This document shows, one piece after another, positions 5,784 to 46,066 of a DNA stretch of 64,000 nucleotides. The DNA is taken from sequence record OM953433; one strand, written 5' to 3'. Each line of letters opens with the position of its first letter. The stretch's first letter is position 1. The stretch comes from Shigella phage Henu11. The notes beneath the pieces are model-generated. The model saw only the letters and a program-made list of their open reading frames with translations, did no database searches and had not been told where the DNA came from. The translations under genes and the position numbers were made by a program.

Positions 5784-6042
5784 TTTTACTCCCTCTCAAA
5801 TCATTCTGGATAATACCCTACAGCAATTTTCTGCAAAAAGCAAGTTGACAAACTACTTGACAAGGTGTTAGTCTTTTCGAAGTGGGTTTTATCTTAATAG
5901 ACTCCCTTTATAGATTAACTATACAGTTTCTTTAAAAGTCTTAAAAGATTTTTAATAGCTTTTAAAAAGCTTTAAAGTTATATGTATAACATACATAAAG
6001 ATAAGAGATTAAAATCTTTATAGATACTTAACAGAGGCAATC

Positions 6043-6483
6043 ATGCAGAGGATGTACGTTCACCCAGATATCAATAACCTTGTCCAAGCTTTAGAAAGAG
6101 TTGAAGCACTTTACATCGAGGCTCAGAAGGAGTATGCTTATCAACATCGTCGAATGGTTGATGTTCAGCATGAGATAGAACTATCAAGTGGATACGACGA
6201 AGGTTTAAAGTGTTCTGTATTTGAGCACATGAAAGAGATATCTTCAGAAAGACGTAAAGCGAAAGACACAATCTTTTTGATAGATACCTTAAAAAATAAG
6301 TTGCAAAATGGAACGGACTTAGATAGTCTATCCCAACTGCTTCAGGATGCAGAGAATACGTGGGACAGAAATTACTTCCCACGGTCTGAAAAAGGACTTG
6401 ACTTCTCTTCACAAGAAAGCTTAAGATTATCACGACTTACTATTAACAAAATGAGAGAGATTAAAGATGAAAACTGTAAATGA
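6043..6483 (+). CDS. hypothetical protein
   Basis: 146 aa; first gene of plus-strand block after AT-rich divergent region. Confidence 0.5.
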   Translation: MQRMYVHPDINNLVQALERVEALYIEAQKEYAYQHRRMVDVQHEIELSSGYDEGLKCSVFEHMKEISSERRKAKDTIFLIDTLKNKLQNGTDLDSLSQLLQDAENTWDRNYFPRSEKGLDFSSQESLRLSRLTINKMREIKDENCK

Positions 6484-43555: not shown

Positions 43556-43807
43556 ATGGCTACTATCCGCGCAACTGTTAACAATTTTGGCTTCCATGTA
43601 TTAGATGTTAAATTTGATATGGTTGGAACTGGTGATGCTTTCGGTATGATTGAAATGTGTCTGAAGGCAACTATTCAGGACTACAATCCATCGGAAACAT
43701 TCTGGAAAGAAACTAAACAGGAAGTTTTAAAGGATGGTGTATCTTCTTACTATTGGGGTGATTCTCTTATCACGCTTTACTACCAAAAATTTGGTGTGAT
43801 TAACTAA
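43556..43807 (+). CDS. small array protein
   Basis: 83 aa; conserved leader; last gene before convergence region. Confidence 0.5.
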   Translation: MATIRATVNNFGFHVLDVKFDMVGTGDAFGMIEMCLKATIQDYNPSETFWKETKQEVLKDGVSSYYWGDSLITLYYQKFGVIN

Positions 43808-43848
43808 CAAGTCGCCGCAACGGGGCAAATAGCCCCAGATACCTATAC

Positions 43849-43871
43849 AGCCCCTTCAATGGGGCTTTTTT
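43849..43871 (+). terminator. rho-independent terminator
   Basis: AGCCCC-TTCAAT-GGGGCT plus TTTTTT. Confidence 0.65.
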
Positions 43872-44295
43872 ACGTCTTCCTAGAATCTTACCAGACATTT
43901 AGAACAATAACTCTATAGCTTACTCTATATCCTCTTATCAAATCAACTTAAATATAAGCCCATAACCCGAAAGGGAAGGGCAATCCCTAAAACGCTCTAT
44001 AACGCTCTATACGGGCTTATCATCTCATCTTAAGCAATCATATTAACCTACTCTTAAAAGCCCTTTATAGAGCTTTCTAGAGCCTTAAAAGAATCTTATA
44101 AGGGTATAAGCTTTATTATCTCGTTAGTATCTTGTGAATGGTTAAACAGGGGCTTGAAAGTTACTTAATAATGTGTTATGGGGAACTAAAAAGAGCTTAA
44201 AAGTAACGTAAAAGATGCTTAAAAGTAACGTAAAAGTTAGCCCCCTTTACATTCTCTTAACAAAATCTTAACAAATGCAACATAGTTATGCTTAT

Positions 44296-44356
44296 TAGAG
44301 ACTTGTTAGCCCCTTGTTAAATCCTTGTTAGAGGTATGTTAAGAGCTTGTTAGACT
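44296..44356. repeat. five 11-bp phased repeats (cTTGTTAg)
   Basis: TTGTTA cores at about 44304, 44315, 44326, 44337, 44348; 11-bp spacing. Confidence 0.75.
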
Positions 44357-44545
44357 CTTTGAAGTCCCTGTATAAGCCCCTAGAAAGCCCTATAAAGAGC
44401 TATACAGGCAATTGGGCTATAGTTACTATGGAGAACCTTAGAAATGGCTGTATAGAGCTATACAGGGCTTTTAAGAGGGCTTTTAAGAGAATCACTGAGA
44501 GAGGGAAGGGAACTATAGACCAAGAGATAGTGACCATGTTAATAG

Positions 44546-44762
44546 CTTGTTAAAAAGGTTTAGAACTTGTTAGCATCTTGTTAATTATCTTAACAAAATA
44601 ACTCTTAAGATTTAACTATTTAGCAACTTATAAGCAACTTGTTAGACTCTTGTTAGTAATGTTACAGACTTGTTAAGCTCTTGTTAGTTCTGTTAAGAGA
44701 CTGTTAAGGACTTTGAAGAGATGTTAAGAGCTTGAGAGAGTTGTTAAGAGATTGTTAATGAT
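44546..44762. repeat. array of about 15 10/11-bp phased repeats (nnTGTTAAGnn), some inverted
   Basis: densest run 44638-44760 with copies roughly every 11 bp. Confidence 0.75.
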
Positions 44763-45010
44763 ATTTTAAGATTTTGCAAAGGGGATGTTACAGGGCTGTT
44801 AAGGGCTACCAAGCAGATATACACCCTAGACAGATATTTTTCAGTTCCTTCAAAGAACCTAAAAAGTGACCTACCTAGTCTATTTTATAAAAATTTTATA
44901 GAACTGAATAACTATCTATACACTATCTAGTATAAAACAGGTAATAACAGGCTTATAAGATACCTTGTTAGTACCGTGTTAGACCTTGTAGGATAAGCCT
45001 TTACAGGGAA

Positions 45011-45280
45011 TACCTGTTTAGTGTTATATAACAGTCTATATAGAGGCTTAGTTGACCCTAGTGAACCATCTGTAGAGAGTACTCTCTGTGACATAGAGAT
45101 TAAGATGGATATAGGGGCTTCTAAGGGGCTATGAAGAGACTAGGAAGGTGATTATATAGGTTTGGAAGAGGGCTTGTTAGAGAGCTTTGTAGAGGGCTAT
45201 TTAGAAGGGGCTATATAGTTTCACTAGATAGAGACTAAGAGGCTATATAGATACTATATAATACTATATAGAGAGTATGC
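45011..45280. repeat. cluster of palindromic CTATATAG octamers
   Basis: copies near 45011, 45216, 45246, 45259, 45270; related CTATACAG/GTATAGAG copies at 44395-44470. Confidence 0.6.
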
Positions 45281-45360
45281 TTAGATAGGTTGTTTAGAAG
45301 GTCTAGATATTTTATCACATATCATGGTGACCCAAGATGAACGGAGTGAATCCAAATTTT

Positions 45361-45392
45361 ATAAAATAATAAAAGCCCCAAAAGAGGGGCTG
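45361..45392 (-). terminator. rho-independent terminator (minus strand)
   Basis: reverse complement AGCCCCTCTTTTGGGGCT followed by TTTATTATTTT. Confidence 0.6.
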
Positions 45393-45400
45393 TAAAGTTC

Positions 45401-46066
45401 TTAGCAAAGGTTATCTATGATAGCCTGAATAGCTGGAATAGTTGTGTGATAAAAATGAGTGTTTCCGTTATGGGCTTCTCTCACTTGTAACATGATAGAG
45501 TGACCCTTTACAGGGAAGCATTGAATGTGATAACGATTCCCGTTAAATACTACTCCACCACCTGAACAGAACCCTTCCAAGACTGACTTAGTAAGGAACT
45601 CTTCTTTTCCTGTGACCTTTATGAAGACACCTCTGTTAACTTGTGAATGGTAAATGTCTTCCATAAACAGCATCTGTTGTCCACCAAGTGAAACCATAGA
45701 GATACCTTTACGATTCTGCTCTTTAACATATATCTCAAGTTTCTTCAAAGTCTCTTCATAGAACGGATAAGACTTCTTCACAAAGATACCTTCAAGTGGC
45801 TCATCACCAGCATCTTCACGTTCATCTTTAAGTCTACCTACAAGACAATCAAGGCTTCTTCTCTCGCTATCGTCAAGATACTTATTAATATCTTCCAAGC
45901 TAAGTACCAAGTACTTTCTCTCTAAGTTAAATTCTTTGGTCATCTCTATCAAATCCTTAAAAGCTTTTTCAGTAACCTTCTTCCATTCTTCTGAGTTCTT
46001 CTTCTGAGGGAGTACCATATCTCTCAAGAACTTGAAACTCTTCTTCAGACGGGCTTCCATAATCAT
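45401..46066 (-). CDS. hypothetical protein
   Basis: 221 aa; last gene of minus-strand block. Confidence 0.5.
   Translation of the reverse strand: MIMEARLKKSFKFLRDMVLPQKKNSEEWKKVTEKAFKDLIEMTKEFNLERKYLVLSLEDINKYLDDSERRSLDCLVGRLKDEREDAGDEPLEGIFVKKSYPFYEETLKKLEIYVKEQNRKGISMVSLGGQQMLFMEDIYHSQVNRGVFIKVTGKEEFLTKSVLEGFCSGGGVVFNGNRYHIQCFPVKGHSIMLQVREAHNGNTHFYHTTIPAIQAIIDNLC

Follow-up and report, generated by a model that had tools for sequence, protein, structure and literature searches.

The genome of Shigella phage Henu11 (OM953433) raises a question at the point where two convergent blocks of genes meet. In the window (the whole stretch of 64,000 nucleotides analysed here), positions 43810-45400 form a non-coding gap, bordered by the final gene of the plus-strand block (43556-43807) and that of the minus-strand block (45401-46066), and this gap is densely filled with short, regularly spaced repeats. 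Which function do these repeats serve? The original prediction described the gap as a convergence region without a convincing open reading frame, and named an iteron-type origin of replication, a ParR-type centromere, a packaging recognition site and a regulator-binding hub as candidate functions. The description of the locus is borne out. The longest open reading frame of the region (68 aa, TTG start, 44347-44553) is rejected as a gene, since indels of 1 nt and 23 nt break the frame across it in related phages, and both gene blocks are closed by predicted intrinsic terminators: a 6-bp GC-rich stem followed by a T run at 43849-43866 on the plus strand, and a second hairpin at 45374-45391 on the minus strand. 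An RNA gene was likewise rejected, as a search of the region against Rfam gave no match at E ≤ 1, and so was a cluster of promoters, with 6 promoter-like sites found versus 7.2 expected, that is, no enrichment.

The region matches 254 phage records, all of them Felix O1-like (Ounavirinae) with the exception of one that is deposited as Staphylococcus phage SA1. The closest matches are Shigella phage SFPB (93%, the best), Sf17 and Citrobacter phage Michonne. In the SA1 record (GU169904), positions 135835-136983 constitute a Felix O1-like copy, suggesting a mixed or chimeric deposit. For several Felix O1-like phages the genome ends have been described: phage UAB_Phi87 has a direct terminal repeat (DTR) of 608 bp, obtained from Bal31 digestion and run-off sequencing (PMC4837284), phage Pr103Blw has a DTR of 581 bp, obtained with PhageTerm (PMC8303462), and short terminal repeats were inferred for Felix O1 itself (PMC3185647). 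The record of UAB_69 also carries a DTR annotation. The DTRs of UAB_Phi87, Pr103Blw and UAB_69 align end to end with positions 44237-44812 of the window, and share with it the boundary motifs, the position between convergent genes and the layout of TGTTA sites described below. The copy in the window is shorter (571 bp versus 608 and 581 bp), and the differences consist mostly of gains and losses of blocks of 10-12 bp or 22-32 bp.

The ends of deposited sequences point to the same two positions. In pairwise BLAST comparisons, the records of D4 and GE_vB_7A start at window positions 44240-44246, and those of Pr103Blw, CRP22 and EcSzw_1 end at 44809-44810. With 44240-44810 as the query, the first or last base of H12, SeKF_63, ZX4221, NBEco004, NBSal004 and GE_vB_7A corresponds to position 1 or 571. 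At least 12 independent records or contigs begin or terminate exactly at the two boundaries, including records of Erwinia and Hafnia phages and one IMG/VR genome. The left boundary is marked by the motif TTAGCCCCCTTTACATT (44237-44253, plus strand; consensus (T/C)TAGCC(C/A)C.TT.ACATT, starting at 44237), which is kept in four genera and places the predicted left genome end at 44237-44240. D4, H12, SeKF_63, ZX4221, vEam_W_28 and the IMG/VR contig 2974644367 start here, and the annotated DTRs of UAB_69 and Pr103Blw begin here as well. The right boundary is marked by AAGCAGATATACA (44811-44823, plus strand), just outside the repeat, with the predicted right genome end at 44810-44812; Pr103Blw, CRP22, EcSzw_1, GE_vB_7A and SPARTY end at this boundary. 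The right motif is almost invariant in four genera, being exact in most loci and carrying one mismatch in two Kolesnikvirus loci, and both motifs are present in genomes of the Moogle-, Susp-, Felixouna- and Kolesnikvirus type.

Because the mapped DTRs of relatives and the ends of their records align here, we predict a DTR of 571 bp at 44240-44810, with an uncertainty of approximately 2 nt at each end. Judged by this homology, the stretch is almost certainly the direct terminal repeat of the phage genome, which the collapsed assembly represents as a single copy. Whether genome termini fall within the gap, a check proposed with the original prediction, can thus be answered affirmatively by homology, and both repeat arrays come to lie inside the predicted DTR. 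The phage itself is a mosaic: the flanking 83-aa protein (43556-43807) is 100% identical to its counterpart in phage mistaenkt, but the non-coding regions of the two phages share only about 84% identity, and the repeat 44240-44810 is closest to that of Shigella phage KPS64 (96.5%).

The repeats are built on the pentamer TGTTA. The left array (44291-44353, plus strand) consists of five TGTTA cores at 44304, 44315, 44326, 44337 and 44348, hence at the pitch of exactly 11 bp that had been described for five copies from inspection of the sequence; three of the copies read CTTGTTAG, one CTTGTTAA and one TATGTTAA, and a degenerate sixth copy, CTTATTAG, is found at 44291. The right array (44537-44801, plus strand) had been described as about 15 copies at a spacing of 10-11 bp. 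The number is roughly right for its main part (14 cores from 44537 to 44753). Two additional cores at 44786 and 44797 lengthen the array and bring the total to 16, all in the same orientation; neighbouring cores are 11, 9 or 20 bp apart, except for one gap of 61 bp. Two inverted sites (TAACA on the plus strand, hence TGTTA on the minus strand), at 44258 and 44269 (44258-44273), are 11 bp apart and adjoin the left end of the repeat; most relatives have three. The centre of the repeat (44354-44536) is free of TGTTA and contains an imperfect palindrome of 37 nt (arms 44377-44413 and 44442-44478), sites of the types CTATACAG and CTGTATAG, and two copies of GGGCTTTTAAGA.

The enrichment is confined to this stretch. 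The predicted DTR holds 21 plus-strand TGTTA in 571 bp, versus 135 in the whole 64 kb, corresponding to about 20 times the background; every other window of 571 bp has at most 5 (mean 1.0), and first-order Markov simulations yield 1.2 per 571 bp on average and never more than 7. The heptamer CTTGTTA has 11 of its 17 occurrences in the window inside 44240-44810. The octamer clusters of the original prediction are found as well, with 4 of the 6 occurrences of CTATATAG in the window and 3 of the 5 of CTATACAG (plus strand) falling in the region; like CTCTATA and CTTAAAAG, they are concentrated in the flanks and the centre. An analysis of periodicity, proposed at the outset as a check, gives a lag-11 self-identity of 0.427 in 44240-44810 versus a background of 0.266 +/- 0.019 (maximum 0.321), and both flanks are likewise periodic at 10-12 bp. 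The local pitch is 11 bp, and the best-fitting period is 10.3-10.45 bp over the right array (long-range phase 10.3 bp) and even over both arrays taken together. The phase coherence amounts to R = 0.75-0.91 (0.87 for the right array), compared to a 99th percentile of 0.68 under the null model. A period of this length with a coherence above the null model implies that the TGTTA sites share one face of the helix.

To what extent is this arrangement under selection? In an alignment of nine genomes that are 77-97% identical to the window, the columns of the TGTTA cores are conserved to 95.7%, versus 73.4% for the spacers within the arrays (Mann-Whitney P = 1e-13), and the columns of the inverted copies are conserved to 100%. 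Order and spacing of the sites are kept across four genera. The conserved layout begins at the left end with two to three inverted sites at +11, +22 and +33, followed by four to six direct sites at 11 bp, continues with approximately 190 bp that are free of TGTTA and contain the imperfect palindrome, and closes on the right with 13-18 direct sites in the spacing series ...11, 11, 9, 11, 20, 20, 11, 33, 11. Indels occur mostly in units of 10-12, 22-23 or 32 bp. Relative to UAB_69, the non-coding DNA is 76-78% identical, versus 61-69% for the flanking genes. The most conserved block is an 81-nt stretch on the plus strand (TGTTAAGAGCTTGAGAGAGTTGTTAAGAG...TAAGATTTTGCAAAGG, 44702-44782), the sole part that can be aligned by BLAST with the Erwinia and Hafnia phages (Kolesnikvirus). 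Genes adjoining the region in Kolesnikvirus have no detectable homology to those of the window, yet the ends, the arrays and the 81-nt block are kept. Hence, selection acts on the TGTTA cores and on their phase. The contrast between cores and spacers, the preserved layout and the retention in Kolesnikvirus together identify a strongly constrained cis-acting site and link it to core machinery of the subfamily rather than to local genes. A loss of the repeats in related phages had been named as an outcome that would speak against the original prediction; the arrays are kept in relatives of four genera.

We note that the core motif by itself is a poor guide to homologues. Scanned for four TGTTA spaced by 11 bp, IMG/VR yields over 120 loci, of which most are perfect tandem repeats with no relationship to the element, and a search for homologues by means of the flanking 83-aa protein finds close relatives only. 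Four unrelated IMG/VR contigs carry TGTTA or TGTTAAG arrays with 11-bp spacing and variable spacers, some of them at contig ends.

On both sides, the repeat is embedded in conserved non-coding DNA. The left flank (43899-44236, 77% identical to UAB_69) would be the unique DNA beside the right virion end. It contains CTCTATA and CTTAAAAG four times each as well as a 22-bp tandem repeat at 44189-44236, and its indels come in units of 11 or 22 bp. The right flank (44824-45370, 78% identical to UAB_69) would be the unique DNA beside the left virion end, and contains an AT-rich block CTATTTTATAAAAATTT (44880-44896), a pair of TGTTA at 44966 and 44977, and CTATATAG at 45036, 45211, 45243 and 45264. 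In the phages Moogle, SUSP1 and SUSP2, the hexamer TTGACA precedes this conserved AT-rich block, an arrangement suggestive of a rightward promoter; at the corresponding place the window (approximately 44868-44900) reads ACCTAC.

The DTR of Felix O1-like phages is already known; a description of its internal repeat architecture was not found. Accessible publications on this DTR state its length and do not mention internal repeats, and repeats, an origin or a pac site of Felix O1-like phages are undescribed in the literature searched (theses and most subscription journals lie outside its scope).

As for the proteins that could read the element, the large terminase subunit TerL is encoded at 61294-62910 (match to phrog_979, terminase large subunit, E = 5e-234). 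Its open reading frame has a TTG start, and the alignment to phrog_979 sets in only at profile position 82. Directly upstream (61081-61287) lies an open reading frame of 68 aa that belongs to phrog_4397 and is without a match in Pfam or PDB; by its position only, it is a candidate for the recognition subunit. Neither this open reading frame nor the genes flanking the gap have an informative match in PHROG, Pfam or PDB, and profile searches recognise no small terminase subunit or other DNA-binding protein, leaving the TGTTA sites without a link to the terminase. To our knowledge, no small terminase subunit is annotated in Felix O1-like phages. The window also contains 26 tRNA genes clustered at 55464-60863, with an open reading frame for an HNH endonuclease (56868-57353) inside the cluster.

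We propose that, in this Felix O1-like (Ounavirinae) phage, the region would be the concatemer junction, with 44240-44810 as a short exact DTR of which concatemers would contain one copy per junction and the packaged linear DNA one copy at either end. The cutting enzyme would be TerL together with a DNA-recognition partner, the left cut would fall between ...AAAGT and TAGCCCCC, and the right cut between ...GGGCTACC and AAGCAGATATACA. The repeat would then be copied by synthesis, resulting in two copies per virion DNA as in phages of the T7 type; the general model for exact DTRs assumes a single repeat at each junction of the concatemer and synthesis of the other copy (PMC10438801). The 21 TGTTA sites of equal orientation and the two to three inverted copies at the left edge, presented on one helix face, would most likely serve as a platform for cooperative binding, marking the repeat for the packaging machinery and shaping the DNA between both cut sites, with the block 44702-44823 as its putative core. 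TGTTA sites are found 10-25 bp from the right end and 20-35 bp from the left end, which is the proximity expected of a pac- or cosB-like site. The packaging recognition site among the original candidates is thus supported by homology as far as termini and packaging site are concerned; the identity of the TGTTA-binding protein and the packaging role of its binding are what we infer in addition. As a whole, a concatemer junction whose DTR carries the TGTTA arrays as a one-faced packaging platform appears moderately probable to us. A terminal inverted repeat does not form part of this proposal: the comparison of the left 62 nt with the reverse complement of the right 62 nt gives a score of 28, which is reached by 6-61% of segments of the region in four genomes, and as this lies within the region's own background of repeats we make no claim of symmetry.

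The proposed platform has to be weighed against readings in which the same sites act at another stage, or not at all. The arrays fill most of the repeat and do not cluster at the cut sites, a distribution that would also be consistent with a role after injection: the identical ends might be coated by a phage protein that shields them from host exonucleases or pairs the repeats for recombination into circles or concatemers. Since the arrays occupy most of the repeat they would be present at both virion ends, the phasing keeps their sites on one face for about 500 bp, and the terminal repeat is generally known to be the substrate of concatemer formation in DTR phages (see also PMC10438801). A role of this kind is compatible with a role in packaging, the two not being exclusive, but we consider it rather unlikely: a candidate for an end-binding protein was not found, and the most conserved block lies at most 110 bp from the right cut site and adjoins the almost invariant motif, which fits cutting better than coating. 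In its strongest form, to which we likewise assign a small probability, the approximately 21 phased TGTTA would load a sequence-specific protein, which would assemble into a one-sided nucleoprotein filament along the whole terminal repeat and hence along both injected genome ends. Such a filament would make the element a phage 'telomere' for end protection or pairing, or a start of terminal replication, besides or instead of a site for terminase recognition, and, if true, it would be an end-organising complex of a new kind, shared by all Ounavirinae. Even the neutral alternative, in which the repeats are products of replication slippage in a dispensable spacer, can point to the indels in whole repeat units, and these do imply that slippage takes place. 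As an explanation of the arrays it is already disfavoured and has next to no probability, given that the cores are far better conserved than the spacers, the pattern of sites is kept across four genera, and the region is more conserved than the adjacent genes.

The headline of the original prediction, an origin of replication, would have the repeats serve as iterons at or near the DTR, bound by a phage initiator, with the AT-rich block 44880-44896 as unwinding element. The repeats are indeed numerous, directly oriented and helically phased, the non-coding DNA is strongly constrained, and the AT-rich block is present; blocks of the sequence ATTTTATAAAA at 44882 and 45356 both lie in stretches conserved across relatives. 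However, 43810-45400 contains no DnaA boxes and no IHF sites (WATCAANNNNTTR), the flanking genes include no initiator-like family and are themselves unconserved in Kolesnikvirus, and a 5-bp core on an 11-bp pitch is unlike typical iterons, which are 17-22 bp long. Replication also gives no reason why the arrays should stop precisely at the mapped termini. A local maximum of the cumulative GC skew falls at the region (45-46 kb) and the minimum lies near 6000, whereas an origin would be marked by a minimum; as skew in phages follows transcription, this test is weak. Taken together, these points make an origin at this locus distinctly improbable. The minimum of the cumulative GC skew (approximately 5800-6050) coincides with a divergent switch from minus-strand genes (up to 5783) to plus-strand genes (from 6043), and would be a better candidate for the origin than the region, if skew reflects replication at all. 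Still further from the evidence are a regulator-binding hub or silencer for the convergent transcription units and a ParR-type centromere, which we regard as very improbable in spite of the resemblance of the short phased repeats to the 11-bp repeats of R1 parC. No par genes, and in particular neither parM nor parR, are recognisable among the neighbours, the region is bounded on both sides by terminators and not by a promoter, with promoter-like sites as frequent as given above, and the phage is, from what is known of its family, presumably virulent and without a plasmid stage. A hub that serves local genes is also at odds with a sister genus in which the flanking genes have been replaced and the arrays persist.

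The packaging platform may be compared with known systems. The DNA of phage T7 is reported, in work ascribed to Dunn and Studier (1983), to have a terminal repeat of 160 bp flanked by the short-repeat arrays SRL and SRR. Both junctions feature a short exact repeat, specific cuts at its boundaries, arrays of short repeats and a duplication during packaging. Unlike in T7, the main arrays lie inside the repeat and not beside it, and are built on a TGTTA core with a pitch of 10.3-11 bp; moreover, the terminase lineage of the phage, a myovirus, is unrelated, and there is no evidence that transcription plays a role. Packaging sites composed of repeated binding sites are also known from other phages, namely the hexamer repeats of P1 pac, the pacL and pacR boxes of SPP1, and the R sites of lambda cosB. 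The element shares with these several short phased repeats beside a terminase cut and an implied bending or wrapping of DNA, with binding in the present case presumed; it differs by having 21-24 sites over about 500 bp and by an exact DTR in place of headful packaging or cohesive ends. The centromere R1 parC and iteron origins likewise have short direct repeats at about one helical turn, in contrast to which the element has no par or rep genes, promoter or origin signals, and coincides with the genome termini. By this comparison, it differs from the junctions of T7, P1, SPP1 and lambda in three respects: the number of sites (approximately 21), their location inside the repeat, and their phasing over about 500 bp.

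Felix O1-like phages find wide use in the typing of Salmonella and E. coli, in biocontrol and in therapy. With the termini located, the genome map is corrected, in that the apparent gap between two convergent gene blocks is the junction of both genome ends. The element is not a new class but a member of the known Ounavirinae DTRs. The conserved TGTTA code amounts, together with its phase and the pair of almost invariant boundary motifs, to a concrete cis-element that can be tested, with uses in packaging studies, in engineering (the choice of payload sites and of the DNA to be retained) and in fishing out the protein that recognises it. It offers a useful and testable handle on how the terminase of Felix O1-like phages recognises DNA.
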